Origin: a virus
Strand: one strand, 5' to 3'
Virus record (IMG/VR): IMGVR_UViG_3300042356_000801
Coordinates: 1 to 64,000 of that record
Length of the DNA: 64,000 nt
A model generated the notes under the pieces. It searched no databases, was not told the DNA's origin, and worked only from the letters and a program-made list of their open reading frames with translations. Positions 11,857 to 32,441 of the stretch are shown here, in pieces. Numbering within the stretch: the first letter of the stretch is position 1; every line of letters starts with the position of its first letter. Position numbers and translations under genes: made by a program.

Positions 11857-11858
11857 GG

Positions 11859-13307: not shown

Positions 13308-13312
13308 TGGAT

Positions 13313-13609: not shown

Positions 13610-13638
13610 TTTCTAATTATCCCACATAGCTAAGTTCT

Positions 13639-13944: not shown

Positions 13945-15752
13945 GGTGTGGTTACCGTAAAATAGGCTGAGTCGTTGGCATCACTCAAAACAGTAATTGC
14001 TTCTCCGTACACTTGAAGATAAAAAGTTCCTGCATTACCCCCAGTAACGCCCATTCCAATAACCCCCGAAACATTTTTATGGCTATAACTCTCATTTGTA
14101 AAATAACGAAAAGACCCACCTACGGCCCCATCGGTGTCATAATAAGTGCGAACCAAATACGCACCAGTAGCAGCAAAGTAGCAACTAAAATTATAGTTGC
14201 ACACAATGACGCTAGTGCTAGATGGAATAGTTATTCCAACTGCACCTACTGTTAGCCAAGTATTCGCGCCAGTTGTAAAAGCTGTAGCATTTCTTCCATA
14301 GGCACCAATAGTTAGTGCTGTTCCTATTTGTTCTCCAGCAACATGCCAACCGTAAACATTGGATTTAGCGCTGTACCGCGGCACTCCAGCCGAGTCAATG
14401 TACATTCTCCTGTCCCACCCACTGCCATTCCAGGTTAAAAACCCAAGTTCGGTAGCGGAGTTTCCAGCATTCATGTTTGTTGCTCTTATTTGCGCATTGC
14501 CGGTGTCGGAGCCATAAGAAGAAGTATCGACTCCAAAGTTTAAGGCAGCGGAGTTACCCGTAGTATTGGTTGCGTAATTGACGATAGATATCTCTCCGCC
14601 TTTGCCGCCAACAGTGTCCTTACGCACATGAAGTTGCGAGCTTGTGTTTGTAGCGAGAAGAGAAGTGTCCCCTATTCCAACAGTAGATGGGAGAGACAAA
14701 GTTATTCCACCGGTAGAACCAGAAGTTGTTATTTGATTTGCCATTCCGGTAACTGCCACGACTCCGGTATTCGTTACAGTAACTGCACCTGTTGCTCCAG
14801 AAACTGTAATTCCCGTACCGCCAGCTAATGAAGTAACACCATTTGAACCCGGGACACCAGAAGGTCCAGTTGCCCCAATGGGTCCAGTTGCGCCAGTCGG
14901 ACCACCAGCAGGACCGGTAGCACCAGTCAAGCCAGTTGGGCCTGTTGCGCCGGTTATGCCAGTGGGTCCAGTTGGTCCTGTTCCTCCATCTAGTCCAGGC
15001 AAACCATTTAATCCCGGGTCACCTTGAGGGCCAGTCGCACCAGTCGCACCAATTCCTGTCGGACCGGTAGCGCCTGTTAGGCCAGTAGCTCCTGTTGACC
15101 CGGTAGTCCCAGTTAATCCTGTCGCGCCTGCTGGACCGGTAGCACCTGTTGGTCCAGTTGGTCCAGTTGGTCCACCGGAAGGACCCGTCGGCCCTGTTGG
15201 CCCTGTCGCTGGCTGCGGTCCAACCTCAACCCACGATGAGTCGTAATAAACAAAAGTCTGACTTGTGTCTGATTCAAACCACAAGTCTCCCTGCATTGGG
15301 TTGGCTGGGGCAGTATCAGATACCTTAACTCCTCCACCTATTGACATCCACGCAGAACCGTCCCAGTACTGGACAGCAGAAGTTGCGGTTACGTATGTGA
15401 ACACTCCAGTACTTGGGGTCATTCCAAGTGTCGCCGTTCTTTCTAGTTCTGTAGGGAAGACAAGAATGGATGAACGGTTGGACGACTTGCTTGACCCAAG
15501 AATAACAAAGCTGGTCATTGCCGATGTCAAGAACGTCCCTACGACAGTATCGTCTACTTTGTATTTTTTTGTAAGGTCCGTATCAAGTGGAAGTATTGGC
15601 CCTAAATCGCTACCAAGTTCAGGTATGTGAACATGAACTCGGCCGTCAGAACCTACTCTTGTAACAATGCAGTTAAATATTTCGCCAGGGTCTTTGGAAA
15701 TAGAGAAAGCATTGTCTCTACGGATTACTTGTGGTTGTGGAGGAGTAATCAT
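13941..15752 (-). CDS. baseplate spike-position protein: gpV-like OB-fold fused to collagen fibre
   Basis: N-terminal [20 protein letters not shown]...[10 protein letters not shown]; located between hub and gp25-like genes; long G-X-Y tract. Confidence 0.65.
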
Positions 15753-17359
15753 TATTCGCTACCAGGAGTATTTACGTATTTACCATTGGGGAACTTTTTT
15801 ATAACTATTTCATGTTGTTGACCGCTTATTAGGGCACCATAGACCCCAGCGTTGTAAATAGATTCTTTTTTAGACTTGCCTCTTACTTTTGCCAAAAACC
15901 TACCATCCGCCTGATACTTTGCTATGGCTTCATTTTGAGTTAGCTCAACAGGCATTCCTGTTTCCATTGACGTCCATATTGGGGTAAGAAGAAGCGAAAA
16001 TGGCTTACCATTATTTACGCCCCCTTCGGTCCATGGGTAGATGGTGATTGAGTGTGTTGTCTTTACGGTATCTCCAGAGACCAGTACTGGCCTATCGTAG
16101 ATATCCATGTTGCCAGTTGCAAACACCCCGGCGGTAGGAGTTGGATAGCGGTCAAATCGGTGGTCCGCGTCTGGCAGTGGGAATATGCCCTTATATATTC
16201 TTTTTCTAAAGAACTTTGAACCAGCGCGGGTCACGTCATACGTCATTGTTCTATTAGTTAGACCATCCTGGTCGGTGATGTCGATTACCTGTGGACCACG
16301 TTCACCAATTGGCAAATCTTTGATTTCTTTGTCTTCTTTTTGTGGTTTTTTAAAAGAAATACTTACCGGGTCTGGTGATATGTCAGGAAAAGAAACATTA
16401 TCTATTAGGTAGTAACCATTGTAATCGGACATCCCACCAAGTTTTATTGTCATTCCAGGCCTTAACCGAACAGCGTTAAATCTATCTAATACAGCAGTAC
16501 CAGAAGCATCCCATGGGTTGTTTTCCGTCATGCTGATGCTTGGAATCTCCATAAGCTGAAGGTCTTCTCTTAGGTCAGCAGAATCCAGTTTTTTGTTTTT
16601 CCATGTAAGTGGGATGTATTTGTTCTTGGTTTTTGCTTTTTTGTCTTTACTTTTGATTTGGGCTTCTGTTAATTTGGCTTCGTGTGTTCCCCAATTTTTG
16701 AGAATATATTTTTCAGATGCAAATATTAAATACCCGTCTACTTCGTAAACAACAAATTTTGCTGTTTTAGCAAGACTGTCAATTACGCTCCATAAGGACT
16801 CGGCTTTGCTTCCAGCGGTAGCCTTGTTTATGCTTTGTGATTTTGAAGTTGTTTCACCCCAAAATTTTAGACCATATTTTTTTGCAGCTCTTTTAACGAA
16901 CTCCGTACCGGAACCCCCAACAGTTCCTGGCTTTCTGTCTCTCTTCATCTGCTGTATGGCGCGAGAATAGCAAGTTACCGTAACGGTAGGGTTCTCTCCT
17001 GGTCCCTGCGACACCCCAACATTTGCTATTTCAAATAGTTGGAGCTGTCTTTGGGATATGTCTGGAAGTGTTGTTTTTTCTATTGTTCCAAACGTCTCAC
17101 TGAGGTAAGCAACAACGCGACCCATGTTAAAATAGTTTTTAGAAATCATTTTAAGGTCTTCGTCAAGAACGGTAAAAGACAGTTCACTAGACATGTTCAT
17201 TGTGTATTGAACGTTTACGCTTATAAGTCTTTCTCTTACTTCAGCAATTTCTTCTCTTTTTTCGTCCATAAAAAACAGGACGCCACCATACTGACGCTCA
17301 AGGGAGCGTGGGATTTGTTTCCATAATTCAATTGGGACCCTGTTGTCTGCGTTAGCCAT
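15752..17359 (-). CDS. baseplate hub (gpD/gp27-like) with C-terminal extension
   Basis: [31 protein letters not shown]...GYYLIDNV pattern; synteny. Confidence 0.7.
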
Positions 17360-17361
17360 AA

Positions 17362-18999
17362 CTATGGTCCAAAAATGTCACGGACACCCAACATTCCAAT
17401 AGGTTGGGTTCGGCGTCTGGACGCAAGGTCGTATGCGGCCTGGTCAAGAACGATTACAGACTTGCAGGATGCGTCATAATTTACTATTCCCTTAGCTAGT
17501 GACCTTAGCCATGCAATATCATTTGATGTGTAGTTTTCTCTACTCCAAGTGTTTTTTGCTGCTGAGTTGTCACATAATCCCTTGTCTCCAGGGGGTGGTG
17601 GTGGAACCTCGGGAATTGGTTTAAGTTTTGGAAATTCAATAAGTTTTATTAGTTCTTGAGGGTATTCGGTCAGCGTTATGTCGCACGAAGCCCTGCTTAT
17701 CGCTCCAGTAGAGCTTCTATATATAGAGCTAACATTCAGGTCGGCAATAACAAACAAAGAGCCTTTGCTTGCAGAGTCATTGTTAAACGGATACCTAACT
17801 GGCTCCGACAGCAATTTGTCAAAACCCATAAATACAACAGGAAACGGACTTGAGGCCATTTGGCGTAGATTTTTAAGTTGTTCATCAACACTTGTTGTTA
17901 TTACTTTGTTATCAAGAGCATCGTCTAGATTGCCAGAAATATCCGAGGCAACAATAAAGCTAAAAGAAACACTCATTAATTTGTATGACTTCCAGTCAAC
18001 CATTGGCCTATTTGCTGCTCTATCAATTGGGGTCCAATCAGAGCCAAGACTTGAATAGGTTATTTGATTTGGCCTATGAACAAATTCATAAACAAGCGGT
18101 GTTTGTCCTGATGTTGTTGTTTGAACAAGTTTGGGTGTTTGCGATGCAGCAACCGAAGTCGCTGAAATGCCATTTTTTTTAACCGTATTTAAGGTGACAG
18201 CTATGGTTTTGCTTTTTGCAATTTGTCTTGCGGTGCTTGCTTTTGGAGTAATCAAAGACTCTGATTCTCTTACAGCCAAGGTTCTCTGTGCCTGAGCATT
18301 AATTAACGCAACTGCTTCTTCTCGTGATTTGCCTTGAGATATTAGCTCGTAAACTTGAGAAATTCTTATTGACTCAACAGTATTAGCCATAAGGGACTCG
18401 TTGCTCTGACCAGAGGTATCCCTTGAGAAAATTGTGTCAATAAGGTATTGAGTATCAGTGATTCCAAAAGTTTGCAAATTACCAAATGGGTAAAACTCGT
18501 TCTTAAACGGGTGATACCAATAAGAAGGGACAATCAGTGTTCCGTAGCTGTCGTAAGTGTCTGTGTATGTTTCTTTGCTTTCAACCCAAATCTGGATATT
18601 TCTATAAGAGTAAGGGTTGGTTGAAGGAGAGAGTGGGTACAGTTTTGTTCTTCCTGTAGCAACAAACAGTTTAGTTCCATAGTATTTGTGTGTATAAACG
18701 GCATACCTGTCGGTGTAGTGCCTTGGAACTTTTTTAACCAGACTTTCTAGGCGAGGTTCATACTTAACCCTTGTGGCAATAACGTTTTCATCTCCAGCCG
18801 TATACTCTTTGTACTTTGTCAACCCAGGAAGAGGCATCCAGTACTCAACCTCGTCAAGCCTAATTGGGGTACCACCTGGAACATTTTTGTATAGATGATA
18901 AATGGGATAACCGGAGTAAATAACGCCTGCTCCTGGTTGTGTTTTGCGAACTTCTTTATAAAAATAAGTATTTTGAATAGGTTGAGTAACTGCAGGCAT
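17362..18999 (-). CDS. tail tube initiator / gpU-like protein with N-terminal extension
   Basis: FVHRPNQITYS...W..IDR...P and ISRASCDITLTEY motifs; directly after the tape measure gene. Confidence 0.6.
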   Translation of the reverse strand: MPAVTQPIQNTYFYKEVRKTQPGAGVIYSGYPIYHLYKNVPGGTPIRLDEVEYWMPLPGLTKYKEYTAGDENVIATRVKYEPRLESLVKKVPRHYTDRYAVYTHKYYGTKLFVATGRTKLYPLSPSTNPYSYRNIQIWVESKETYTDTYDSYGTLIVPSYWYHPFKNEFYPFGNLQTFGITDTQYLIDTIFSRDTSGQSNESLMANTVESIRISQVYELISQGKSREEAVALINAQAQRTLAVRESESLITPKASTARQIAKSKTIAVTLNTVKKNGISATSVAASQTPKLVQTTTSGQTPLVYEFVHRPNQITYSSLGSDWTPIDRAANRPMVDWKSYKLMSVSFSFIVASDISGNLDDALDNKVITTSVDEQLKNLRQMASSPFPVVFMGFDKLLSEPVRYPFNNDSASKGSLFVIADLNVSSIYRSSTGAISRASCDITLTEYPQELIKLIEFPKLKPIPEVPPPPPGDKGLCDNSAAKNTWSRENYTSNDIAWLRSLAKGIVNYDASCKSVIVLDQAAYDLASRRRTQPIGMLGVRDIFGP

Positions 19000-21900
19000 T
19001 AGGTTCTCTCTCTTACTCTTTGCTCAGTATTTTTTATCTTTGCCATAACCATATTTGCTATCTCTTCAGGATTGTTTTGTCCACCATTGATATGGAATGT
19101 AAACGAGTTAGTTCCTGAGGAAACAGTAGCGCTAGTTGGTACGCCCATTTGGTTAGAAGCTGGGGTCAATGTGTCACCAATTGCTCCAGCTCCCGGAACT
19201 GCATGAAGATGCCTTCCACGACCACTTCCGTGGAACTCGGCAAATCCACCAGCGTTGCGTGTTGCTACGGCATAAGAGCCAAGATTTTGCCCAACAATGT
19301 CAATTGCTCTGCCTGTCACATGGTCAGAATTAAGCGAGCCAAGACCGTAGGTTCTGTAGGAAGACGTTATTGACCTCTTTCCAGCAATGGAGCCATTAAT
19401 GGAGTTGTGTCTAGCCATAGTCTGGCTGAGTCTTGAAGAAGTTGTGTCGCCAACAACCCCACCACGAGGAGTATTTGTGTCATCCTTCATGATTTCTTTC
19501 ATGGCATCTTTCGACCACCATTCGGGTTTTCCAGTAGAGTCAGTGAAATAGTTAGCCATGTTATCGTTGAAGTTCTCTACCGCCGTCTTGAAGGTGTCTG
19601 AAGCAGTGGACATCTTGTCAGCTACAGCATTGGTGTCTTTGTCTATTGACCCTATTTCAAAGTTTTTCTGAGTAGCACCGTATGCGTCAAACTTGTCAGA
19701 AAGCACATTTTGCATGTACTCTTCTTTGCTACCAAAACCTTTAGCTTCATATATTTTTTTTGATTCTTCGTCGGTTTTGTTTGCAAATGGGTCGGTTATG
19801 TTGAAAGTTCCAGACTCAACATCTTTGAGGAATTTTTCCCTATTTGGGGCGTCCATGGAGCCGATTACGGCCGACAGTTGCGAGGTATTGCCCATCATTC
19901 CGGAGTTTGCAAGCATTCCTGTTATTTGTTCAGACGCGCCCCCAATAAATCCTTTTTCCGTACTTGCATCTTGAGCTGCAAGTGCCTTAACAACTGCGGG
20001 TGTAAAGAACTTTGCGGGGTCCATTTTTGCCCATGCACCACCAGGTCCAAACAGTTTTCCTGGGTCAGCGGCTGTTCCTATTTGTTCTTTCTGGCCATAG
20101 AAGGAGTCAATAGCCCCCTTGCCCATTGATGCAGACGATTCCTGGAAACCTTTTAACGCTTCAAGGACCGATGCAGTGCTGCCTCCGCCTTTTACAACGT
20201 CGAAAACTTGACGACCCCGCTCGTCATAAATTTCTGGGGCTTTTGCTGCTTTTATTGCTTCATCAAATCCATCAGAAATACCCTTTACGAACGAGTCAAT
20301 GTTTAGGTTTTTCATTTCCTCGGTTGTTCTAACCATATTTAGACCAAGTTTTTCAACCATGTCTGACATTCTCATAGTGGAGTCGTAAAGGTTCACGCCC
20401 ATTTTTTTGGCCAACAATTCAAGTTCTGCTCCGGATTTACCAGACATCTTCTTGAGCATTTCCATGCGCTTTGTTGATTGGTCGCCAACCATCGTTGCTG
20501 CTTCTATGCGCTCTGGAAGTTTTTTACCAATTTCTGTTAAACCTTTAGTTGGGCTAGCTTTTATGGCTTTGTATTCATCGTCACTAATCATCCCCTTAAA
20601 TGCAGGGTCTTTACGCAGCAACTCTATTTGGTCAAGAGCTTTCTTTTGGTCGTCATTTATGGCGTTGTTTCCGCCCAGGAAACCAAGTCCTGGGACTTTT
20701 GACACAGTGTCCATTCCTGGGATATTTCCAAGGCCGCCCATCAGTTGAGAAACCCCACGGGTGACTCCTCCAGCTGCACTTGTAAGCCATCCAAGTGGGT
20801 TTAACCTTCTACCCCATCTTGACTGACCAGTGAGAGCTCCCAACCATCCTTTTGTTCCAGTCTTTCCCGACTGACTGAAATTGAGCGCTTTTTGGTCATT
20901 TCGTTTTTGAAAGTCCATGTCGATGCCCTTAAATCTGGCACCAACATTTCTGTATTTTTCAGCAGTTGCTGAAGCAACATTTTCAAGTGCGCCGCTTCGT
21001 CCAGCAAGACTTTCTCCTCTTGCTGCGGCTTCTTCGTTTCTCTTTAATTGAATTCCAGCTTTTTTAAATTCGGCAAAAGACACAGCATCCAAGAATGAAT
21101 TAACTGCCGCTTTGGCTTCCTTTGCCCTTTGCTTCATTCCGCCATACCAACCAGCAAGTGCGCCGGTAATGGCACCAAGGGCAGCACCAACTGCGGTACC
21201 TACGCCTGGAGCAATCATTGTTCCGATTGCTGCACCAGCCATGGCTCCCGTCGCTGCTCCACCTTTTGCTGTTCTTGATTTAAGGGCGGCTCCACCAAAA
21301 CCAACTGCGAGTCCAGCTAGTGGGTTGAATTGACCAACCATTCCACCAAGCGCCATTGCCCCCTGTGCTTCTGGGGCCATTTTCTGAGACAACATACCCA
21401 TACCCATACCGACAGCCATTTTTGCGCCCATGCTGTTGTTCATACCGCCAATGCCTTTTTCTGCATTTCCAAGAACAGCAGAACCAAGCCTGCTACTTCT
21501 GGTTTGACGCATGTTATGGGCCATAAGTTTTCTTTTAAGCCCAAAACCGGAATTTCTGAATGTTGCGCCTTTAAACTTTCCTGATTGCTGGTCAAGCCCA
21601 GCAACTACGTTTCCTGTCTTTGGGTGAAGAACTTCTATGGCACCAGTAGGACCGTGAAGTCTTTCTATCCCCATCTGTCGCCCTGTTATGGAGCTTTGCA
21701 GGAACCCAGCTTTTTCGTCAACCTGCGAGTTTGCAGCATTCATTATGTTGCCGAACATTCCACGGGTAGACGTAACCCCCCTGCTACCAAAGCCCCTTAC
21801 GCCTGCACCAAACTGACGAACAAGATTTCCATTTTGATACCTTGCTCTTGGGGTTCTGCCAACATTCCACCCGCCACCATTTCTACGTATCTGCTCATCT

Positions 21901-24128
21901 CTGGCTCTAATTTGACTATTACCTATATTGGCGGCAGAAGCATTTCTGGCGGCCATATATTCAGCGTTGCTCATTCCCGCAGGTATTTGTCCTGTTGCTC
22001 GAAGCCCTGCAACGTCTGAAAGGTTTACTCTTTGTCCTAATGGAGTGTAGTTTCCTACGGCTCCAGCAGCAGCTCCGTGTGTTGGCGTACCGATGCCCGC
22101 TCCTGGTCCTGCGTGCGTCTGGTCGTACGCGGTAGACATTCTTACGTTATGTCTGTCCATGCTTCGGCCCATTCGGTAATCTCTAAAACGCCTAGCAATA
22201 GCACTGTTTGACCTTCTGTCATATCCACCGTGTCCTACGAAATCTGGTGGCGTACTGCTTCTTGCGCCAAACCTTGCCAACCCTCTTTCCCACGCCGCTG
22301 CGTATCCGGGTTGATTACCGCCCAGGTACCTTGCCTGACCTGGGGCACCTGCACCGCCACCCCCAGCAACCTGTCGTCCAGTTGACATTCTTGGGCTACC
22401 AGGAAGAGGAGCGCCAGGTGCTCCACCTGTGGCACCAGAAGACAATCTTCCTCCTGGAGCTTGTCCTGGTCCACCAAGATTTACGGTTCCAGCAGTTACG
22501 TTCATGGTCTGAGTATTTTTGGGAACCTGTGCCATTAGTCCGCCCTTGGTATTTTTCATTTGTCTAGCGATAAGACCCAAGGCCATCAGTCCACCGCCGC
22601 TGCCGCCAAACATTCCACCAATACTTCCAACCATAGAGTTGAGCATTTTGAATACTTCGGTAAGACCCCCAAGAACATCATTAAGGAAAGGCATTGCTTT
22701 CCTTCGAATATCTTCCATTGTTCTTAATAGATTAAAAAGCTGCTCTACAACTCCAGCAATTCTTTCTCCAAATTCTTCAAAAGTTGCTGACTGGTCTTGG
22801 GCATGGACGTTGAAATCTTTCATCATCCCAACAAATCCATCTTTTACCGCATTAAACACCGGTTTAAACATCGACTCAATGGCTCTAGCGCCATCTACAA
22901 ACGGTTTAAGTTGTTCTTTTGAAATCCTAAACCATCTAGCAAATTTTTCCCAACCATTGCCCATGTTTCTAAAAAAACCATCAGTCTTGGGTAGCCATTC
23001 TCTGGTTAGCTTTACAAAGAAGTTAGACACTTTTTCAAAAATACCAACAAGACCATCAAAAAAGTCACCTTTTCCAAACTCGCCTAAAGAACCGCTTACG
23101 CGAAGAAGGTCACTTCTTATAATCCTGAAGATTTTTTGCATTGCAATTTTTGCTGGTTCAAGAAACTGTTGACCAAAGTCTGCAAATTCACCTTTTATCT
23201 GAGTGAAGAAAGCTTTTGCTTGACCAATGAGGGTTGAGTTAACTGCCTCAAACTGCCCAGCAACGCCACCGGCTTTAGCAAGTTCACCAGACATGATGAG
23301 TTCTTTCATCTGTTTCTTGCTGGTTACTTTTGCTTTTTTAAGAGCTTGTTCCATTTGTGGGCCAAGAGCTTTTGCTGCTTCTTTAACCTTAGACATGCTT
23401 GTTTTTGAGTTATTAAGGGCTTCAATTAACGCGCCAACTTTGTCTGCTGCTGCTGCAGGGTCCTGTCCGGCTGCACCAAAGTCCATGAGGTTTTTCATCA
23501 ACCCACCGCTTTGTGCAATCTGCGAAGACTTCATGGACTTAGCCATTGCTGCGTAGGCTTTGTTCAGTGCAGCAACTCCAAGACCTGCTAGCTGAGAGTC
23601 AGCCTGAAGAGTTCTCATTGCGTTGCGAACTTGGTTTGTTCCGGTAAGGAACTCTCCAGCTCCGCCCTTTGTAAACGCATACATTGCTGCTTGCTGCTCA
23701 CGAATAGCGGCAGCTGCGGTTCCGAGTGCTACTGCTGCGCTGGCGGCCGCGCCGGCCATAGCAGTCATTCCCCATGAATAGGCTTTATGTAGCCATTTTC
23801 CTGCGACAAAAAGAGCGTGAACGCTCATTAGTGAGACAGAAAGAAGAGCAAAGTTAGCAATTGCCCCCTTTATTGCTAGTCCAAGAAATTTTGACAGGCC
23901 CATTCCTGCCGCTTTTACGCCTTTATCAAAGCTGTCAAAAGACCTTTTTGCTTTTAATACGCTAGTACCAAGTGAATTTGTGCTGGCAGCTGCGGCTTTT
24001 TGTCCAGACGAAAGTCTGCGTGATTTAGCGTCAAGCCTATCAAGAGCTTTGTCAAGGGTCTTTACTTCCAGAGCGCCCTGAGCGGCACCCTTTACCTCAA
24101 TATTGACTGTACCTTCAGCCCTGGCCAC
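18999..24128 (-). CDS. tape measure protein with C-terminal M15-like peptidase domain
   Basis: 1709 aa, Ala/Gly/Lys-rich helical with hydrophobic segments; follows the chaperone; C-terminal ITSSYR...SDHVTGRAID...HLH. Confidence 0.85.
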   Translation of the reverse strand: MARAEGTVNIEVKGAAQGALEVKTLDKALDRLDAKSRRLSSGQKAAAASTNSLGTSVLKAKRSFDSFDKGVKAAGMGLSKFLGLAIKGAIANFALLSVSLMSVHALFVAGKWLHKAYSWGMTAMAGAAASAAVALGTAAAAIREQQAAMYAFTKGGAGEFLTGTNQVRNAMRTLQADSQLAGLGVAALNKAYAAMAKSMKSSQIAQSGGLMKNLMDFGAAGQDPAAAADKVGALIEALNNSKTSMSKVKEAAKALGPQMEQALKKAKVTSKKQMKELIMSGELAKAGGVAGQFEAVNSTLIGQAKAFFTQIKGEFADFGQQFLEPAKIAMQKIFRIIRSDLLRVSGSLGEFGKGDFFDGLVGIFEKVSNFFVKLTREWLPKTDGFFRNMGNGWEKFARWFRISKEQLKPFVDGARAIESMFKPVFNAVKDGFVGMMKDFNVHAQDQSATFEEFGERIAGVVEQLFNLLRTMEDIRRKAMPFLNDVLGGLTEVFKMLNSMVGSIGGMFGGSGGGLMALGLIARQMKNTKGGLMAQVPKNTQTMNVTAGTVNLGGPGQAPGGRLSSGATGGAPGAPLPGSPRMSTGRQVAGGGGAGAPGQARYLGGNQPGYAAAWERGLARFGARSSTPPDFVGHGGYDRRSNSAIARRFRDYRMGRSMDRHNVRMSTAYDQTHAGPGAGIGTPTHGAAAGAVGNYTPLGQRVNLSDVAGLRATGQIPAGMSNAEYMAARNASAANIGNSQIRARDEQIRRNGGGWNVGRTPRARYQNGNLVRQFGAGVRGFGSRGVTSTRGMFGNIMNAANSQVDEKAGFLQSSITGRQMGIERLHGPTGAIEVLHPKTGNVVAGLDQQSGKFKGATFRNSGFGLKRKLMAHNMRQTRSSRLGSAVLGNAEKGIGGMNNSMGAKMAVGMGMGMLSQKMAPEAQGAMALGGMVGQFNPLAGLAVGFGGAALKSRTAKGGAATGAMAGAAIGTMIAPGVGTAVGAALGAITGALAGWYGGMKQRAKEAKAAVNSFLDAVSFAEFKKAGIQLKRNEEAAARGESLAGRSGALENVASATAEKYRNVGARFKGIDMDFQKRNDQKALNFSQSGKTGTKGWLGALTGQSRWGRRLNPLGWLTSAAGGVTRGVSQLMGGLGNIPGMDTVSKVPGLGFLGGNNAINDDQKKALDQIELLRKDPAFKGMISDDEYKAIKASPTKGLTEIGKKLPERIEAATMVGDQSTKRMEMLKKMSGKSGAELELLAKKMGVNLYDSTMRMSDMVEKLGLNMVRTTEEMKNLNIDSFVKGISDGFDEAIKAAKAPEIYDERGRQVFDVVKGGGSTASVLEALKGFQESSASMGKGAIDSFYGQKEQIGTAADPGKLFGPGGAWAKMDPAKFFTPAVVKALAAQDASTEKGFIGGASEQITGMLANSGMMGNTSQLSAVIGSMDAPNREKFLKDVESGTFNITDPFANKTDEESKKIYEAKGFGSKEEYMQNVLSDKFDAYGATQKNFEIGSIDKDTNAVADKMSTASDTFKTAVENFNDNMANYFTDSTGKPEWWSKDAMKEIMKDDTNTPRGGVVGDTTSSRLSQTMARHNSINGSIAGKRSITSSYRTYGLGSLNSDHVTGRAIDIVGQNLGSYAVATRNAGGFAEFHGSGRGRHLHAVPGAGAIGDTLTPASNQMGVPTSATVSSGTNSFTFHINGGQNNPEEIANMVMAKIKNTEQRVRERT

Positions 24129-24194: not shown

Positions 24195-24386
24195 TTATTG
24201 CCTAGATTTGCGTTCCTGCTCTTCGCGGTCGTTACTTATTACTTTAGCACAAGCAAGCCTTATTAGCCATTCAGTTTCTGTTGAATCTAAAAGTCTTACT
24301 GGGTCTGTCCCGAACAGTTCGCCTAATCTTGCTGCCGAGATGACTAAAGGGTCTTCAACTAGTTCGTCGAAGACCCCTTCGTAGGG
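24195..24386 (-). CDS. C-terminal (-1 frame) part of tail assembly chaperone (gpGT-like frameshift product)
   Basis: Open -1 frame PYEGVFDELVEDPL...ERKSRQ* with no start codon of its own, overlapping the chaperone end; not in the ORF track. Confidence 0.7.
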   Translation of the reverse strand, partial: PYEGVFDELVEDPLVISAARLGELFGTDPVRLLDSTETEWLIRLACAKVISNDREEQERKSRQ

Positions 24387-24898
24387 TCTTCAACGTCCAC
24401 CGAATCAGAGTATCCAGCAGCGTCAAGAATCGAGAGGGCAGCAGCCTCAATATGAGGGTCAACTCCAAAGAATTCCTTAACACAGTCAGGAAGTGGGCGA
24501 GTTGTGTTTGTCATCTCAAGAATGACTGGAGAAGCAAATGTCAGCTCATTGCCAGCATCATCGAATACTTCTTCGTCGTCAAACAAGATACCGATAGTGG
24601 TGTGGCCAATAACTGAACAAGCAAAACGTGTTCCATCCATACCATTACGGGTATCTTCACCAGCTTGCTTACGCCAGTTTTTCATTTGGTTCTGGGTAAT
24701 GTTCGGGCTAATCTTGATTTTTACACCAGGGCGTTCAGGAACAGGGATTAGAACAACCGAGCGTTCAACCTTGCGCTTGACAATGCCCGTAAGCTTTTGA
24801 AGCGGTGTCTCTTCTGCAGCAACAGCAGCCTTGACTTGCTTTGCTTTAGGGGAAGAATCTTCTGTGGATGTTGTATAGAGTTCAGAGTTTTCTGTCAT
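24359..24898 (-). CDS. tail assembly chaperone (gpG-like)
   Basis: Lies between tube and tape measure genes; overlapping -1 frame downstream. Confidence 0.75.
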   Translation of the reverse strand: MTENSELYTTSTEDSSPKAKQVKAAVAAEETPLQKLTGIVKRKVERSVVLIPVPERPGVKIKISPNITQNQMKNWRKQAGEDTRNGMDGTRFACSVIGHTTIGILFDDEEVFDDAGNELTFASPVILEMTNTTRPLPDCVKEFFGVDPHIEAAALSILDAAGYSDSVDVEDPTKGSSTN

Positions 24899-24955: not shown

Positions 24956-25435
24956 TCAACCAGCTGCGCCAGCACCGGACTCAACGTCCGAGATGGCAAA
25001 TGTTAGCGAGAAAGTCGCAGGAGCACCAGAAGATGAGTCACCGTCTGGCTCTGTGATGCCAACCAAAAGGGCCTTTGAGTACACACGGTCCGTGCCTGGA
25101 ACCTTGAGGTCGCAGTCAAAGGTCTCGATTGTGATGTCGTACGAAGCACGGCCAACCAATGGGCGGAGTGTTGCAATCTTTTCTGCAATTCCGGTAGGGC
25201 CGTCTGCTTGGTTTCTGTCGTCATCATAGTGAGCGGTCAGCGTAATGTCGCCAACTTCAGATGGTGCACAGAGAACGGTAGGACGGAGCTTGCCGCCTTC
25301 GTAAATCTTTTCTACAGATGCAGTAATTTCTCCACCAGAAACCTGGGCAAAGTAAAAACCTGTCCACTTCGGGTGTTTGCCAGCATCAACCGGCACGACC
25401 GAGGCGAGTACTTGGCGCTGAGATACTTTTGACAT
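24956..25435 (-). CDS. tail tube protein
   Basis: 159 aa directly after sheath; FAQVSGGEI...GDITLT and EPDGDSSS motifs. Confidence 0.8.
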   Translation of the reverse strand: MSKVSQRQVLASVVPVDAGKHPKWTGFYFAQVSGGEITASVEKIYEGGKLRPTVLCAPSEVGDITLTAHYDDDRNQADGPTGIAEKIATLRPLVGRASYDITIETFDCDLKVPGTDRVYSKALLVGITEPDGDSSSGAPATFSLTFAISDVESGAGAAG

Positions 25436-25449: not shown

Positions 25450-26970
25450 TTAGACGACGCTAGCGGTTAGATTCGACTTGATAATGTCGACTTCAATTTT
25501 GTCGCCGACACTGCTGGTGCGAACACCAACTTTAGCCTTGACAGTACCGCCTGCTAGTTGGCTGACTGGGTTCAGATAGGAGTCGCAACGAACTGTGTAG
25601 CCACTGTCGACTTTCTTTCCGTTGACATCAAATGCTTGGAACAAAGCGCCTTCTTCGCGCAATGGAGCAAGAATTGCAATCAATCGTGATGTAATTGCAG
25701 AGAAGATGGTGTCACGTCCGTCGATTACACCGAAGACAAGGTCTTCGAGAGACCGCTGAGAAGCAACAACGATGTGGTTGATGATTTCTTGGGTCGTGAT
25801 GTAGCGGAAGTTCTCAGTGTCAATTGACAATGAACGAGCACCGTAGATTCTTACAGAGTTTTGAATGATTCTAATTGAGTTGACTTGCTCGTCATCCAAT
25901 TGGTCACCAGATGTCTTGTTGATATCAAGAGCAGTACCTGTAACGAATCTTGCTGTAGAGATAAGACCAGCGGCTGGAACATGTGCTCCACCTTGGTTGT
26001 GAGCCTGTGCACGCTTGGCGGCAACATAGCCGTCTGGCGGTATAAGCCTTGATACACCAGCAATCGTTGTTGGAACGTTAACCCACGGGAAGTACATAGC
26101 CGCATGCTCGGTTTCTGTGAGAACCTTAAGTTCTCCTGCCTTCGAGATTGCGTTAGCAACAGTATCGGCAGCGCCTCCGTGCAAGATAGCAATTCTATTA
26201 TTTGCATTTGCGTGAGCAATAAGAGCAGTAGAAACGTCCTGAGTGGCCTTTAGTGTGCCATCGTAGTCAGTAACTGGTCCACCAACGGAAAGGCGAGTTG
26301 CCGTTTCTGCGTCTGGGATTGAGACTGCACCGGTACCGAGCGAGTCGTTGAAGACTTCAAGGGCGTCAATTAGGGAGTCGTCATCAACCTGTGCAAGGTC
26401 GTCGTCTCCTGCTGAGAGGTTTGTTGCTACAAGAACTGCTGGCTTTGTTGTTGCGCCAACAACGGCTGTTGCCGTTACGTAGCGAGAAGCAACTGAGCTT
26501 AAGTTGATGCGACCAGCAGCTTGTGCCACAGAGGTTACGTTGCCCGTGCTGTACACAGGGTCACCTTGGTAAGAGATGATAACTGCAAAGGTTGTTCCTG
26601 TTGGCTGAGTAACAGTAACTTCAACATCTGAGCTCCATGCGCCTGCACCGTTTGCGTCAATTGTCAATACTGGGTCCTCGTCAGCATCTTCAAGAACGAG
26701 CGTTCCTGATTCTGCGTCAGCGCCGACAACTCTGGAGATATAAGCCTGAGTGCCGCCTTCTTCAAAGAAGGTTTCTACTGTTGGGTGGAGGTACGAATAC
26801 GAAACGTATCCGCCGAACATGTGTTCAAATTCTGCAAGGCTCTGAACTAAAACTGCTTCGCCAACAGCTCCTCGTTCTGCTAATCCGACAACAAAAAGCT
26901 GCGAAGATTCGCGCACTGTCGCGGAAGATGGGCCTGTTCTGACTGCTGTGGAGATTACTACGCCTGGCAT
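25450..26970 (-). CDS. tail sheath protein
   Basis: MPGVVI start, FFEEGGTQAYISRV, YFPWV, PPDGYVAA and IYGARSL motifs. Confidence 0.92.
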   Translation of the reverse strand: MPGVVISTAVRTGPSSATVRESSQLFVVGLAERGAVGEAVLVQSLAEFEHMFGGYVSYSYLHPTVETFFEEGGTQAYISRVVGADAESGTLVLEDADEDPVLTIDANGAGAWSSDVEVTVTQPTGTTFAVIISYQGDPVYSTGNVTSVAQAAGRINLSSVASRYVTATAVVGATTKPAVLVATNLSAGDDDLAQVDDDSLIDALEVFNDSLGTGAVSIPDAETATRLSVGGPVTDYDGTLKATQDVSTALIAHANANNRIAILHGGAADTVANAISKAGELKVLTETEHAAMYFPWVNVPTTIAGVSRLIPPDGYVAAKRAQAHNQGGAHVPAAGLISTARFVTGTALDINKTSGDQLDDEQVNSIRIIQNSVRIYGARSLSIDTENFRYITTQEIINHIVVASQRSLEDLVFGVIDGRDTIFSAITSRLIAILAPLREEGALFQAFDVNGKKVDSGYTVRCDSYLNPVSQLAGGTVKAKVGVRTSSVGDKIEVDIIKSNLTASVV

Positions 26971-29609: not shown

Positions 29610-30164
29610 CTACCTGTCGCTATTCGGTGGTGATTCAATCACTGGACCCTTATCAAGCGTCCCTGGAGGAGCCTCTACTGGCACCCATGCTCTTGAATAT
29701 GTATATTCCTTGATATTCCTTGACTTCAATATTGTGCCGTCAATCATTAAAGAATATTCATTTCCCTTCATGCATAACGTTCTTTCTAGGCTTTTTTCAG
29801 TAGCGGCTCGAGACCTGACAAGTTTTTTAATTATCGATGACATAGGTTTGGCCACTACCGAGCCTCTTCCTCTATTTAGTCGAAGATGCATCTCCATTGC
29901 CTCCATGGTCCCAACATCATGCTTTATGACCGGGATTGTTTTACCAATTATTTCCATTATCTGCTTGACATTTGTAGCCAACAAATAGCGCTCAGAGCCA
30001 TCAATGATTTCTCCGGTTCTAGCAGATACATGGATTGGTTGAATAAAACCAAAATCGAGCAAAGACGCAGAAAGCACTAAAAGGTCTGGTCTCAGTATGT
30101 AGGTTGCTCTCCATGGTGGGACGATAAGTGTTGATGGGTCAACTTCCTCTATCTCATACTTCAT
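29610..30164 (-). CDS. ParB/Srx-fold protein, IbrB-like
   Basis: GFIQPI...IIDGSER...NRGRG; overlaps the IbrA-like gene; start moved to ATG 30164. Confidence 0.7.
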   Translation of the reverse strand: MKYEIEEVDPSTLIVPPWRATYILRPDLLVLSASLLDFGFIQPIHVSARTGEIIDGSERYLLATNVKQIMEIIGKTIPVIKHDVGTMEAMEMHLRLNRGRGSVVAKPMSSIIKKLVRSRAATEKSLERTLCMKGNEYSLMIDGTILKSRNIKEYTYSRAWVPVEAPPGTLDKGPVIESPPNSDR

Positions 30165-31293
30165 ATGTTGTTTCCATTTCTTCGTCATTATTTCTTACTG
30201 TGTATGCTCTAGTTCTTGGCCCAACAGGAGAAGGTGAACCACCATCTATTTCGTTGAGAACAAGAGTTCTAATTAGCAGACTGATTGGGTAAGCACGTTG
30301 GTCTTCTAGATGCTTCTTGCGAAACTTAGAGACGTATGCTTTTGCTTCCATTTGTCTGCGTTCACCAACTAGGTAGTCTTCAATAAACATTGAAGCACCT
30401 TCTAAACCCAATCCCGAGTATTCGTTAATAAGTTTTTCAATGTCAAATTCTGGCCACCACCTGCGTTGAGCATCGATGTGGGGAAAACACTCCACAAGCC
30501 TGTCGTAAAACTCTGGTTCCGTAGCAACCACATCACCAATCCTGCGAATAGCAATGCTGTGGAGTGGGATACCGATTCTTGTGTTACTTTCCGTCTGGGC
30601 AGCAAGGTCGTAATACTCACAGTACTCAGAACCGTGTTCTTCAATCAAAAACTTAAATACGTCGTTTGTGTTCCAGTCATAAATAACCTTGGCAAACTTC
30701 ATTGGTATTCCGGTCTTGAGTTTGTACGGAGTAACGATGTAGTTCTCATGCAACTTCTGAACGCAGGACCTATAGCGAACCATTGACTCGCTTGCTCTAA
30801 CGCCGGTGATGAAGGCAACATTCCCCTTCTTGCCCTGCATGGTGTAGTAGTCGGTCTGTTCTGGAAGAGATACATCGTGGGTTAGACCAAAGTCTTCACC
30901 CGTAATAGCCCAAGGCGGGATGTCTCTTACGAGCCTTCCCTGGTTCTTACGCATGTTGCTCCACAGAACTGTAGTAACCCTCTGTCCGAGAACCCAAATT
31001 TCTGCAGGGTAAGGGAGGCAGTACCACTCCATGTCAACCCAGTCGTAGTTTCGCACTTTTTCTACATACTCAATAGTTGTAGGGCTTACCATTTCCTCGT
31101 CTCGGAAAATAACTTTTACTGGCCCAAGACCGCGTTCTTCGTGTACCTCTTTAGCAAGATACATAACCGCAGAGGAATCTTTTCCTCCAGAGAACTGAAC
31201 ACATACGGTATCAAAAGTATCGTAGACGTGCCTAATTCTTTGGCGGGCTGCATCTATGCAGCTCATGTCAAGAAACATTCTTTGTCTAGTCAT
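30154..31293 (-). CDS. PAPS-reductase-family (PP-loop) protein, IbrA-like
   Basis: FSGGKDS, FRDEE, GVRASES..R and IYDW motifs. Confidence 0.85.
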   Translation of the reverse strand: MTRQRMFLDMSCIDAARQRIRHVYDTFDTVCVQFSGGKDSSAVMYLAKEVHEERGLGPVKVIFRDEEMVSPTTIEYVEKVRNYDWVDMEWYCLPYPAEIWVLGQRVTTVLWSNMRKNQGRLVRDIPPWAITGEDFGLTHDVSLPEQTDYYTMQGKKGNVAFITGVRASESMVRYRSCVQKLHENYIVTPYKLKTGIPMKFAKVIYDWNTNDVFKFLIEEHGSEYCEYYDLAAQTESNTRIGIPLHSIAIRRIGDVVATEPEFYDRLVECFPHIDAQRRWWPEFDIEKLINEYSGLGLEGASMFIEDYLVGERRQMEAKAYVSKFRKKHLEDQRAYPISLLIRTLVLNEIDGGSPSPVGPRTRAYTVRNNDEEMETTYEV

Positions 31294-31424
31294 TAGTATT
31301 TCGCAATCTGAGAAAGACGATTTACTTCGGCACGAAGTTCGTCTATTACGCGATTTAGTTCATTACGCTCAGCTATTAGTTTTTCAAATAGTTTTTCAAG
31401 TTCTATTAACTCTTCAGGACTCAT
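31293..31424 (-). CDS. small coiled-coil protein
   Basis: 43 aa with heptad pattern; overlaps both neighbouring genes. Confidence 0.55.
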   Translation of the reverse strand: MSPEELIELEKLFEKLIAERNELNRVIDELRAEVNRLSQIAKY

Positions 31425-31635
31425 TATGTTTCCAACCGTTTCTAGCGTTTCTAGCATAGACAAGCGCATACGCACCAGCCATCAAAATAAATCCATACTG
31501 TTTTGTTTTAACTGCGTAAACAACCCAAAGAATCTCATTGGCTAAGTTTATTAACCAGCCCCACCAAACTCTATTGCCAGCAATTAAAAGGCCGGTAACA
31601 CCAAGAGTTCCAAGCACCCACGACCAAATACTCAT
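31414..31635 (-). CDS. small membrane protein, PnuC-like half transporter
   Basis: WWGWLI...LWVVYA...QYGF pattern, about three TM segments. Confidence 0.6.
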   Translation of the reverse strand: MSIWSWVLGTLGVTGLLIAGNRVWWGWLINLANEILWVVYAVKTKQYGFILMAGAYALVYARNARNGWKHNES

Positions 31636-32441
31636 TAAATCTCCGAGTGTTGGCCGATGAAGTCCATTAACCGTTCTGCAGTTGTATTCCCAACAATTGA
31701 AACATCACTTCTTAGCCAGCGAATAAAATCGTACCAACGAGACTGCTGGGCAGGGTTATCAAAGACAAGCGTGAACTGAACCACTGCTTGCTGACCAGCA
31801 CCTGCAGCCATTGTTGAACCACGAATAGCTATATCGTTTTGGTCAGAAGAAGAAGGGGCGACGATTCTTTTCTCACCTTCACTGTCTCTAGTGACGGTGA
31901 ACTCTTGTGGACGCAATTCAGGGACATCGTCAAATCCTTGAATCTCCGTGTTTCTATCGATAAGAACCGGTGGAACGTAACTACCACTAGTGGACATCTC
32001 ACTGCTGTTTCTGTAAACCTCTTGCTCGTATTCGGCAATCTCAAACTCATCCCAACCAAGGCCCTCTAGTAGCTCTGGGTAGTAATCGCTCACTGAACTG
32101 ATTAGTTCATAAAGAATTTCTGGTTCAGAGTAACCAAGCTCAACAGTCCTGTTGTCGGCAAGCGCAAATGCAACAGCACGAGAATCATCGCCCTCAAGAT
32201 AAATAACAGCAATCTGGTCCCATCCAAGAATCTTGGCGGCCTCCAACTGGTGATTACCGGCAATTACAGTTGCCGTTCCATCATCGTTTCTTTTGGCAAC
32301 TATGGGTTTTACTTGGCCGAACTCCGCATAGGAAGCAGTAATTGCGTCAACGTCTCCAATTCTTGGGTTCTTCTCAAGTGGCAGAAGTGTGTTTATGTCT
32401 ACCGCCATACCGATTAGTGACGGATGGATACCGTTACTCAT
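31635..32441 (-). CDS. ParB-like nuclease domain protein
   Basis: NPR.GDV..I..S...FGQ.KPI, IAGNH and ALADNR motifs. Confidence 0.82.
   Translation of the reverse strand: MSNGIHPSLIGMAVDINTLLPLEKNPRIGDVDAITASYAEFGQVKPIVAKRNDDGTATVIAGNHQLEAAKILGWDQIAVIYLEGDDSRAVAFALADNRTVELGYSEPEILYELISSVSDYYPELLEGLGWDEFEIAEYEQEVYRNSSEMSTSGSYVPPVLIDRNTEIQGFDDVPELRPQEFTVTRDSEGEKRIVAPSSSDQNDIAIRGSTMAAGAGQQAVVQFTLVFDNPAQQSRWYDFIRWLRSDVSIVGNTTAERLMDFIGQHSEI

Follow-up and report, generated by a model that had tools for sequence, protein, structure and literature searches.

The window analysed here is a stretch of 64,000 nucleotides, positions 1 to 64,000 of the IMG/VR virus record IMGVR_UViG_3300042356_000801, and the whole contig measures 91,169 bp. 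A long gene on the minus strand was assigned as the tape measure protein (TMP). This assignment rests on synteny and architecture. Upstream lie genes for a chaperone (phrog_5088), a tube protein (phrog_5102) and a sheath protein (phrog_23), and downstream lie Baseplate_J and baseplate hub-like proteins. Full-length homologues occupy the same gene position in related phages. A hydropathy scan of the long product showed four hydrophobic segments and a glycine zipper. Searches against Pfam and PHROGs returned no TMP family (for example PF10145 or TIGR01760) at E≤0.01, and tblastn with the TMP against 50,697 phage records matched no cultured relative. The features of this region are as follows.

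18999–24128, minus strand: TMP, 1709 aa, GTG start; assigned from synteny, architecture and full-length homologues
24359–24898, minus strand: tail assembly chaperone, directly upstream of the TMP, given for context (phrog_5088, E=9e-11)
24003–24017, minus strand: N-terminal junction-type site RLSSG, TMP residues 38–42; a predicted cut here would remove a propeptide of approximately 40 aa
23700–23897, minus strand: two hydrophobic, membrane-helix-like segments right after the N-terminal site, residues 78–113 and 121–143 (hydropathy scan)
22566–22622, minus strand: hydrophobic segment, residues 503–521, approximately 40 residues ahead of the internal site (hydropathy scan)
22299–22508, minus strand: Gly/Pro-rich low-complexity spacer, residues approximately 541–610 (composition scan and alignment)
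22434–22448, minus strand: internal junction-type site RLSSG, residues 561–565, within the spacer
22377–22391, minus strand: RMSTG, a possible weak second spacer site, residues 580–584
21147–21257, minus strand: glycine-zipper hydrophobic segment, residues approximately 958–994 (Pfam Gly-zipper_YMGG, E=8.4e-5, below cut-off; hydropathy)
19197–19472, minus strand: C-terminal LAS/M15-like metallopeptidase region with the pattern SxxR...DH...D...HxH (Pfam Peptidase_M15_3, E=0.0025, below cut-off)

The spacer has a combined Gly and Pro content above 40% and separates a conserved block I from a variable Gly/Arg-rich region that extends to residue approximately 800. The weak Peptidase_M15_3 match covers profile positions 14–101 of 108; its motifs are kept in the aligned homologues, and a PDB sequence search with the C-terminus gave no match. 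The initial annotation had noted RLSSG twice and RMSTG once in the TMP, and translation of 18999–24128 on the minus strand confirms all three. It had also placed the second RLSSG at the start of a Gly/Arg-rich segment. Such a region does follow, but the site itself sits inside the Gly/Pro-rich stretch rather than at its start. RMSTG is retained solely in TMP relatives at 95–100% identity, so its significance is uncertain. Tandem sites in the TMP spacer are also present in other lineages.

The same peptide recurs in two giant proteins encoded by the head operon on the plus strand.

41967–54575, plus strand: polyprotein 1, 4202 aa, with 16 R[LFM]SSG junctions, the first at residue 587
42138–42569, plus strand: S78 (HK97-type) prohead serine protease domain, a candidate junction protease (Pfam PF04586, E=4.7e-9)
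42240–42260 and 42438–42455, plus strand: the conserved S78 His in VVWGHNW and the conserved Ser in EWSIGY
53892–54266, plus strand: MPTase-PolyVal zincin of the terminal ArdC-like module, a weaker candidate protease (HELVH at 54036–54050)
56357–64000, extending to contig position 65107, plus strand: polyprotein 2, 2917 aa, with 7 junctions
58076–58387, plus strand: conserved gluzincin signature HEIAH ... E..AE in the N-module of polyprotein 2, the second universal candidate protease

Polyprotein 1 carries UvrD-like and ArdC-like modules between its junctions. Polyprotein 2 begins with a motif-free N-terminal module of approximately 1320 aa, and its seven junctions follow. Taken together, the giants contain S78, WYL (weak), UvrD, ArdcN, MPTase-PolyVal and RNase_T domains. 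They thus show what defines a polyvalent protein, namely many unrelated conflict-type domains plus a peptidase in a phage late operon. The junctions frame the Pfam domains: ArdcN begins four residues past a site, and UvrD and RNase_T each fall inside one interval. The protease-scaffold module is separated from the capsid gene by approximately 23 kb (the cargo modules of polyprotein 1, a 558-aa ORF and polyprotein 2) plus approximately 6 kb of genes. The junction motif is absent from the major capsid protein, from the portal and from the scaffold-like region that belongs to the S78 module, all of which were scanned.

A six-frame scan of the window gave 18 copies of RLSSG: ten in the ORF at 41967–54575, five in the ORF that starts at 56357, two in the TMP and one off-frame. 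The off-frame copy, at 54424, falls within a short stop-to-stop ORF and was treated as a chance occurrence. Across the 91,169-bp contig, R[LFM]SSG occurs in just three proteins, with 16 and 7 copies in the two giants and 2 in the TMP. The looser pattern [LFM][SA]SG gave 25 matches in the giants, 2 in the TMP and none in the other 20,715 residues. This agrees with the earlier observation that the other main ORFs lack the motif. The proteome-wide scan that the initial annotation had proposed was extended to a complete 148-kb relative (G001). There, [RK][LFMIV]S[ST]G is found in the same three proteins and in one stray KVSSG of a 60-aa ORF, and the looser four-residue pattern has two further matches in 35,205 residues of other proteins. 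For a protein of TMP composition, the expected count of R[LFM]SSG is 0.0096, and two or more copies have a Poisson P of 4.6e-5; 9 of 200,000 composition shuffles reached two or more.

Both TMP sites are found at the same relative places in homologues of 33–99% identity, and they are retained where the N-terminal and spacer sequence around them is poorly conserved. At the N-terminal site the homologues show [KR]LSSG, RFSSG, KFSSG, ALSSG, GMRSST, TFASA and GLASST, and three lineages (G019, G021/G035 and G011) have a degenerate or lost site. In nearly every TMP homologue examined, the spacer holds a site of its own lineage's type. The junction classes of the polyproteins are mutually exclusive between lineages, and the TMP follows them:

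G016: polyprotein junction G[LM]RSS[ST]; TMP sites SGMRSST and GGLRSST
G017: polyprotein junction GFAS[NST]; TMP sites TFASA and DGFASS
G018: polyprotein junction G[FL]SSST; TMP site SGLASST
G019: polyprotein junction GLSSG[RK]; TMP site GGLSSGK
G021: polyprotein junction SL[SA]SG; TMP site PSLASGA
G012/G006: polyprotein junction RL[SA]SG; TMP sites RRLSSG and GRLASG
G010: polyprotein junction RFSSG; TMP sites RFSSG, in two copies

When mapped on the TMP tree, the junction classes changed in at least four separate lineage switches, and sister clades carry different peptides. The codons at 26 sites vary freely among synonyms, with both Ser codon families in use, and the flanks of the TMP sites have nothing in common with those of the polyprotein sites beyond the motif. 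Selection therefore acts at the level of the peptide, and a DNA-level origin, either a recombination signal or a recent copy, is excluded on the same grounds.

The absence of the motif from the TMP homologues of polyprotein-carrying phages had been named in advance as the result that would count against a link between the two. We found the motif kept at two fixed places, down to 33% identity. A shared recognition factor for head cargo and TMP, as had been proposed, is thus well supported at the sequence level by the restriction to three proteins, by this conservation and by the covarying switches. The data are also compatible with the related claim of a mark for ejected proteins, although this claim depends on the inferred ejection of the polyprotein modules.

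We regard R-[L/F/M]-S-S-G as this lineage's version of a short junction peptide with the core hydrophobic-x-Ser-small. Between the modules of the head-operon polyproteins, it most probably marks where a phage-encoded endopeptidase cuts. The TMP sites change in step with the junction peptide; therefore, one phage protease probably cuts both. We consider it likely that the TMP is the third substrate of the enzyme that cuts the two polyproteins, and that this enzyme is preferably S78. We infer cleavage, enzyme and timing from these patterns. One cut would fall approximately 40 residues from the N-terminus, and one or more would fall in the disordered Gly/Pro-rich spacer. The spacer cut would separate block I, with two membrane-like helices and a long helical region, from block II, with the glycine zipper and the C-terminal M15-like peptidase. 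The predicted fragments are residues 1–41, 42–564 and 565–1709. Cleavage might take place before tail assembly, at the neck after head–tail joining or in the infected cell after ejection. By precedent the TMP lies in the tail lumen, and the cut would therefore fall outside the sealed prohead.

Since the TMP has its own, covarying copy of a motif that other proteins of the virion also use, the putative enzyme can be narrowed to two universal phage-encoded candidates, S78 at the start of polyprotein 1 and a gluzincin resembling lethal factor (LF) and PPEP in polyprotein 2; an ArdC-type zincin is a weaker third. We narrowly prefer S78, fused to the N-terminus of polyprotein 1, as the putative junction and TMP enzyme. 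With a hydrophobic P3, Ser at P1 and a small P1′, the peptide would be in keeping with that protease superfamily's pattern. An alignment of six lineages shows VVWGHNW and EWSIGY without variation, and 78 of the 80 retained loci have VVWGHN in their polyprotein ORF. In at least 552 IMG/VR contigs, this domain stands first in polyprotein 1. The phage group is known from uncultured contigs only. Outside the group, S78 relatives of approximately 40% identity occur in ordinary protease-scaffold genes, and the annotated capsid maturation proteases of Gordonia phages show this same level of identity. When GTDB was scanned with the S78 alignment, the only hits were four contigs of MAGs belonging to unrelated phyla, and these are probably phage DNA that was binned wrongly.

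Several observations speak against S78. The domain keeps 72–98% identity across the group though the junction peptides differ between lineages; just two or three columns separate SSG from non-SSG classes, and these are confounded with phylogeny. The capsid, the portal and the scaffold-like part of its own module lack the motif. By precedent, prohead proteases act within the prohead, and tails are assembled separately; S78 cleavage of a protein in the tail lumen would thus be without known parallel. In a full-text literature search, we found no report of TMP cleavage by a prohead protease and likewise no published description of junction-coded phage polyproteins.

A possible but less probable enzyme is the gluzincin of the polyprotein 2 N-module, acting in trans. 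It would cut ahead of the hydrophobic residue (P1′ = L, F or M; P1 basic or Gly), either in the producer cell or after co-ejection. All seven lineages examined have its HExxH motif at a matching place in polyprotein 2. The invariant residues comprise the HExxH motif and downstream Glu as third ligand (H231, E232, H235, E328 and E332); the H, E, H, a Gln and two downstream Glu persist in all seven at an overall identity of 19–32%. Such quick divergence would suit a lineage-dependent specificity, and gluzincins of the lethal factor/PPEP clan recognise extended sequence-specific sites. Pfam found no match for the module. In an AlphaFold2 model of it (pLDDT 67.6), the best structural match was the catalytic domain of anthrax lethal factor (1yqy_A; VIA-align Z 8.0, rmsd 4.8, 188 residues aligned), with PPEP-2/-3 at Z 5.5–5.8 and thermolysin and other zincins also top-ranked. 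The model is middling, a Z of 8 lies within the range of common-arrangement matches, and Foldseek gave nothing significant for it. ESM Atlas leads were clusters of Pro-Pro endopeptidases and metalloproteases (0.91). A soluble zincin would be independent of procapsid assembly, and the tail-lumen problem would thereby be resolved. Conversely, cytoplasmic activity would cut the polyproteins before packaging. By eye, a similar HExxH...AE..AE signature, unaligned, is present in Orf14 of Gordonia phage GMA6, and the protease-scaffold, the capsid protein and Orf18 of that phage, when scanned, had no junction motif; the ancestral role of the fold may therefore be something else. The gluzincin corresponds to the trans-acting or post-ejection protease that the initial annotation had favoured over a capsid-confined prohead protease. 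Its topological reasoning holds, in that a substrate in the tail lumen argues for protease action outside the sealed capsid, and the gluzincin is a second candidate of the right kind, but S78 is at least as good.

We are more doubtful still that the polyproteins are packaged and ejected uncut and that a co-injected S78 or zincin cuts them, together with the ejected TMP, in the new host. If true, polyproteins would be processed in a tailed phage as in eukaryotic RNA viruses, approximately two dozen enzymes would be freed, and the TMP conduit would be dismantled or remodelled. In that case, the TMP sites would give the first indication from sequence that the junction protease works outside the capsid.

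It is unlikely that the peptide stays uncut and instead labels all proteins that leave the virion for binding or handling, for example by a chaperone, during passage through the tail channel or through Ser modification. The proteins concerned should all traverse the tail, and the sites do lie in their disordered linkers; a Ser–Ser core is also modifiable in principle. However, these sites sit at module borders and have the hydrophobic-x-small-small form, as cleavage sites typically do; a protease domain heads the polyprotein, and an uncut chain of 4202 aa of unrelated enzymes would be an odd product.

Mimicry of a host protease target, with a host enzyme cutting polyproteins and TMP and the variants reflecting different hosts, appears rather improbable. 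A cytoplasmic host enzyme could reach both the TMP and injected proteins, and host cleavage has a precedent in Staphylococcus phage 80alpha. For T5, an early report of a host role in tail protein cleavage (Zweig and Cummings 1973) is cited in PMC10038345. Against this, a host enzyme would also act on the polyproteins in the producer cell, ahead of packaging, sister phage clades on the TMP tree differ in peptide, and the phage encodes at least three putative proteases within its motif-bearing proteins. We know of no bacterial protease target of the form R-[L/F/M]-S-S-G.

Still less probable as the enzyme is the MPTase-PolyVal zincin, which belongs to the terminal ArdC-like module of polyprotein 1 (Pfam PF18818, E=7e-43; ArdcN, E=6e-26). 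We know of no sequence-specific cutting by the Wss1/SprT-type relatives of its clan. Autoprocessing by an MPTase is the general proposal for polyvalent proteins (PMC5512222). The domain is present with an intact HExxH in this phage, and it occurs in all three complete relatives and in class-A fragments, with HExxH intact in those inspected (G001, G019 and G021). It was not found on G016, G017 and G018, which have the whole cargo region and still show their own junction code and matching TMP sites. This absence weakens the candidate, yet these contigs are 37–56% complete and all complete genomes have the domain. As a complete ArdC-like unit, it resembles cargo.

Chance, or a by-product of low-complexity Gly/Ser-rich composition, can be effectively refuted as the origin of the TMP sites: the internal site does lie in a Gly-rich region and four-residue versions are expected approximately 0.5 times per TMP, but two exact five-residue copies have a P of approximately 5e-5, the N-terminal site is outside low-complexity sequence, and the positions are conserved and covary with the polyprotein code between lineages.

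Which protease cuts TMPs is a question that has stood since the work on lambda gpH and T5 pb2 in the 1970s and 80s. If the head protease is responsible here, one maturation enzyme would serve both head and tail assembly, which are usually taught as independent. If cleavage by the zincin follows ejection, a large and widespread phage group, represented by at least 552 IMG/VR contigs, would deliver a self-processing polyprotein into its host. With either enzyme, each lineage's peptide and its matched protease would be natural orthogonal protease/site pairs, and the TMP sites offer a small, tractable substrate to define them.

Prohead proteases are known to cut many head and ejection proteins at short motifs, as SPN3US gp245 does at AXE (PMC10052503). 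The system proposed here resembles those of T4 gp21, phiKZ gp175 and SPN3US gp245 in that one phage protease would act at one short motif in many virion proteins (PMC10052503). In the large myoviruses too, the motif tags proteins that are packaged with the DNA and ejected, and the head operon here likewise encodes a protease domain of the HK97/T4 superfamily. Their substrates are head proteins, and the cuts mostly take off N-terminal propeptides (PMC10052503); here, in contrast, one chain holds up to 16 modules linked by the motif and has the protease fused to it, and the motif also occurs in a tail-lumen protein. In SPN3US the TMP is listed as a tail protein only, and we found no mention of its cleavage.

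The giants also resemble the polyvalent proteins of Iyer, Burroughs, Anand, de Souza and Aravind 2017 (PMC5512222), which are likewise giant, encoded in late operons and built from ArdC-N, MPTase, helicase and nuclease domains. Those authors proposed that such proteins are packaged, injected and proteolytically processed, with MPTase autoprocessing possibly after injection. Their text describes no recurrent junction peptide and does not include tape measure proteins, and the assemblin-like peptidases that they describe are C-terminal, whereas the domain here is N-terminal (PMC5512222).

HK97-like actinophages share the order portal, protease-scaffold, capsid with the phage described here. In Orf19 (484 aa) of Gordonia phage GMA6, an S78 domain approximately 40% identical is followed by an acidic scaffold-like region, as here, but GMA6 lacks cargo modules, and neither its protease-scaffold nor its capsid protein contains the junction motif. 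In Staphylococcus phage 80alpha, the host protease Prp recognises an L27-like motif and cleaves the capsid and scaffold proteins there. That system likewise uses a short common peptide in several virion proteins and one protease that is not confined to the capsid. Its enzyme comes from the host and its motif is copied from ribosomal protein L27, whereas here the candidate proteases are encoded by the phage and the motif varies between sister clades.

Cleavage of a TMP is itself established: T5 pb2 is cut after R1127 and lambda gpH is converted to H*, and the protease is not known in either case (PMC10038345). T5 pb2 has hydrophobic stretches and a C-terminal metallopeptidase, as predicted for the TMP described here, and in pb2 a single linker cut during morphogenesis separates functional parts (PMC10038345). 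The T5 cut falls near the C-terminus, with the hydrophobic stretch directly on one side and the peptidase motif on the other; in the present TMP, the internal site lies approximately 1000 residues before the M15-like region and approximately 40 after the hydrophobic segment 503–521. T5 and lambda have no reported link to a head-protein motif, whereas the TMP of this phage has a second, N-terminal site and shares its motif with the head-operon polyproteins.

The window covers the first 64 kb of one 91,169-bp virus contig. The phage is contractile-tailed. Its tail genes lie on the minus strand in this order:

25450-26970, minus strand: sheath
24956-25435, minus strand: tube
24359-24898, minus strand: tail assembly chaperone
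18999-24128, minus strand: tape measure protein (TMP), the next ORF
7150-18999, minus strand: baseplate genes, following the TMP in minus-strand order

The TMP ORF translates from a GTG start into 1709 residues. None of the curated tape-measure models matches it, and no relatives were found among 50,697 phage genome records. The assignment is nevertheless secure because of the gene position, the length, four hydrophobic segments in the hydropathy profile (residues 78–113, 121–143, 503–521 and 958–994), a glycine zipper and a weak Peptidase_M15_3 match at the C-terminus. Collagen-like triple-helix repeats occur in the tail fibre and baseplate proteins (window 294-4624, plus strand; 13941-15752, minus strand). 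The related contig G017 has a 1559-aa ORF (C1:64960-69636) made almost entirely of GATGPTG-type repeats. Between the tail and recombination modules (window 29610-32441, minus strand), a PAPS-reductase-like gene (phrog_2302, E=5e-75) sits between two ParB-like nuclease/partition genes; the arrangement suggests a cassette for DNA modification or anti-defence.

Three motif copies reported in the TMP by the initial annotation are all confirmed on translation:

24003-24017, minus strand: RLSSG, N-terminal site, residues 38–42
22434-22448, minus strand: RLSSG, internal site, residues 561–565
22377-22391, minus strand: RMSTG, residues 580–584

The internal site had been described as the start of a low-complexity segment. 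It does lie within a Gly/Pro-rich stretch (residues ~541–610), but not quite at its start.

The same peptide separates the modules of two giant polyproteins in the head operon:

38322-39638: large terminase, upstream of both giant ORFs
39885-41957: portal, upstream of both giant ORFs
41967-54575, plus strand: polyprotein 1, 4202 aa
56357 to contig position 65107, plus strand: polyprotein 2, 2917 aa
contig 71078-72454: major capsid protein

Polyprotein 1 starts with an S78 prohead protease domain (residues 58–201) and ends in a complete ArdC-like unit (ArdcN and MPTase-PolyVal), with a UvrD-like helicase in between. Polyprotein 2 consists of a motif-free N-terminal module of ~1320 residues, recognised by no Pfam model, and further modules that include an RNase_T exonuclease. 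R[LFM]SSG occurs 16 times in polyprotein 1 and seven times in polyprotein 2, and the sites bracket the Pfam domains. The initial annotation saw no exact copy in the other main ORFs of the window; in the 91,169-bp contig as a whole, the motif is confined to the TMP and the two giants. The looser [LFM][SA]SG has no match in the 20,715 residues of the other proteins of the contig. The major capsid protein has neither a delta domain nor R[LFM]SSG. At the composition of the TMP, 0.0096 copies of the 5-mer are expected; two or more copies have P = 4.6e-5 and arose in 9 of 200,000 shuffles.

An 18th RLSSG (window 54424-54438, plus strand, frame 0) is off-frame in the 3′ end of polyprotein 1, inside a short ORF bounded by stops. 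We treated it as chance, as a rough hand estimate gives ~0.2 expected copies in the five non-coding frames. The 558-aa ORF between the giants (window 54663-56339, plus strand) has no family match; PepSY appears in Pfam only at E=0.14. In two closely related contigs, the S78 region is broken by a TGA or frame break (G010:C1:33830-35365 and G013:C1:19280-19816), so that the N-terminus of the protease falls in one ORF and the remainder of the polyprotein in another. The break may reflect a sequencing error, a damaged gene or recoding.

The 26 sites of this genome use five Arg, five Leu, six Ser (from both families) and four Gly codons. When the flanks of the TMP sites were compared by BLASTP with all ORFs, nothing beyond the motif itself matched. 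The synonymous codon variety and the unlike flanks rule out a DNA-level signal as well as the copying of a cassette. Judged from sequence, selection is acting on the peptide.

Searching IMG/VR with the TMP, and with an alignment built from its relatives, retrieved 37 homologous loci from about a dozen lineages (33–100% identity). Nearly every homologue that covers the Gly/Pro-rich spacer has an internal-type site there (for example RFSSGA, RLSSGA, GRLASGA, PGFSSGR, PGLSSGQ or RSLASGA), and a few have only a degenerate form (GFSSGA, PSSG). This spacer divides a conserved N-terminal block from the conserved C-terminal two-thirds. The site moves by up to ~200 residues within it, yet always parts the same two blocks. 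The N-terminal site (for example KKLSSGA, SRFSSGA, GKFSSGR, TALSSGA or RRLSSGR) is present in almost all homologues, ~40 residues from the start and 22–30 residues before a conserved K-x-F-D-x-x-D anchor; three lineages (G019, G021/G035 and G011) lack it or have a degenerate version. The sequence around the sites is otherwise barely alignable. In G001, a complete 148-kb relative with direct terminal repeats, the same three proteins account for every copy of the 5-mer except one stray KVSSG in a 60-aa ORF; the looser 4-mer has two matches among its other proteins.

Across at least 552 IMG/VR contigs, the S78 domain keeps 72–98% identity. When recurrent 4- and 5-mers were counted de novo in the part of the polyprotein that follows S78, they fell into mutually exclusive lineage codes: R[LF]SSG, KLSSG, GLSSG, SLSSG, G[LM]RSS[ST], GFAS[NST] and G[FL]SSST. 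The comparison with TMP sites used contigs, several of them fragments, on which polyproteins and TMP occur together.

Junction peptides and TMP sites in related IMG/VR contigs
G016: junction G[LM]RSS[ST]; N-terminal SGMRSST; internal GGLRSST, no SSG-type site
G017: junction GFAS[NST]; N-terminal TFASA; internal DGFASS
G018: junction G[FL]SSST; N-terminal SGLASST; internal GFASRT, twice
G019: junction GLSSG[RK]; N-terminal absent; internal GGLSSGK
G021: junction SL[SA]SG; N-terminal absent; internal PSLASGA
G012/G006: junction RL[SA]SG; N-terminal RRLSSG; internal GRLASG
G010: junction mostly RFSSG; N-terminal RFSSG; internal RFSSG

The recurrent polyprotein 5-mers set against all TMPs form a block-diagonal matrix. 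Judged on a maximum-likelihood tree built from its conserved block, the TMP follows at least four separate code switches; as the lineages are related, independent switches are few (four to six). The initial annotation had linked head cargo and tape measure to one recognition factor. The outcome it named as refuting, loss of the motif from TMP homologues of polyprotein phages, was not seen; the sites are kept and follow the code. Given this conservation and covariation, the only simple reading is that polyproteins and TMP share a recognition factor. In G016, a 596-aa ORF outside the giants (C1:12851-14638, minus strand) has one copy of the lineage's own junction peptide (PAGLRSSTTP) and may be a further small substrate.

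The junction peptide is best read as a probable cleavage signal. It lies in linkers at domain borders, has the form hydrophobic-x-Ser-small, and is borne by a chain that starts with a maturation protease. There is also precedent in the large myoviruses, where a single short motif, AXE for gp245 of SPN3US, marks many head and ejection proteins for cutting (PMC10052503). Two other TMPs, T5 pb2 and lambda gpH, are each cut once in a linker by an unknown enzyme; in pb2 the cut follows R1127 and separates a hydrophobic stretch from the metallopeptidase motif (PMC10038345). That the peptide is instead a non-proteolytic tag, which is not cut, seems improbable beside these features. Cleavage of the TMP is predicted to yield residues 1–41, 42–564 and 565–1709.

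The S78 domain of polyprotein 1 is a credible candidate for the enzyme, at somewhat short of an even chance. Every contig has it fused to its substrate, with an invariant catalytic His and Ser. A cut after the invariant Ser of the peptide would give a hydrophobic P3, variable P2, small P1 and small P1′, which resembles the sites of the superfamily (L/I-x-E in T4, V/L-x-A|S in herpesviruses, and AXE). However, the domain is nearly unchanged between lineages with different peptides, just two or three columns are class-specific and these are confounded with phylogeny, and prohead proteases are not known to reach tail proteins.

A gluzincin in the N-terminal module of polyprotein 2, cutting before the hydrophobic residue, is a more doubtful candidate:

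58076-58387, plus strand: HEIAH and downstream E..AE

HExxH and the two downstream Glu are invariant and in the same place in seven of seven lineages, at only 19–32% identity. An AlphaFold model (pLDDT 67.6) is closest to the anthrax lethal factor catalytic domain (Z 8.0), followed by Pro-Pro endopeptidases and other zincins; ESM Atlas leads agree, but nothing significant came from Foldseek or Pfam. Zincins of the lethal factor and Pro-Pro endopeptidase type read extended sites. A host protease as the cutting enzyme is very improbable. Least probable is the MPTase of the ArdC-like unit, an enzyme put forward for polyvalent proteins generally (PMC5512222). All complete genomes have it, but it resembles cargo, and three incomplete contigs with the entire cargo region and a code of their own lack it.

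In polyprotein 1, K-T-I-A-S-T (residues 236–241; window 42672-42689, plus strand) lies ~30 residues past the S78 domain and directly precedes a Pro/Met-rich linker. It recurs in two R[LF]SSG-clade relatives as KAISSS and KKIASS, and KLSSG-class phages have VFASG at the equivalent position. The stretch may be a site for self-release with a looser motif (hydrophobic-x-Ser-small).

If carried into the head by N-terminal carrier modules, the polyproteins would have to remain intact up to packaging, which disfavours a freely active cytoplasmic protease. The internal TMP site would be deep in the tail tube of the finished virion. Among scenarios in which every junction and the two TMP sites can be reached, the simplest is that cutting would occur after ejection in the newly infected cell. 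Alternatively, some free TMP could be cut at a low level before the tail assembles, or the N-terminal TMP site alone could be trimmed at the neck once head and tail have joined. A trans-acting or post-ejection protease, tentatively favoured by the initial annotation over the prohead protease, is thus reasonable but unproven.

We found no publication that describes the junction code or places it in a TMP. Cultured phages with a related protease, such as Gordonia phage GMA6, carry a protease-scaffold gene of the ordinary kind (484 aa) with the capsid gene after it, and lack the motif. Upstream of the protease-scaffold gene of GMA6, Orf14 (KR063280.1, 3384-6413), a 1010-aa hypothetical protein, has HELGH and AE.FAE, similar to the zincin signature of polyprotein 2; GMA6 may thus hold a relative of this module without the junction code. 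The giants fit the class of polyvalent proteins (Iyer et al. 2017, PMC5512222). That account describes neither a junction peptide nor a link to the tape measure.
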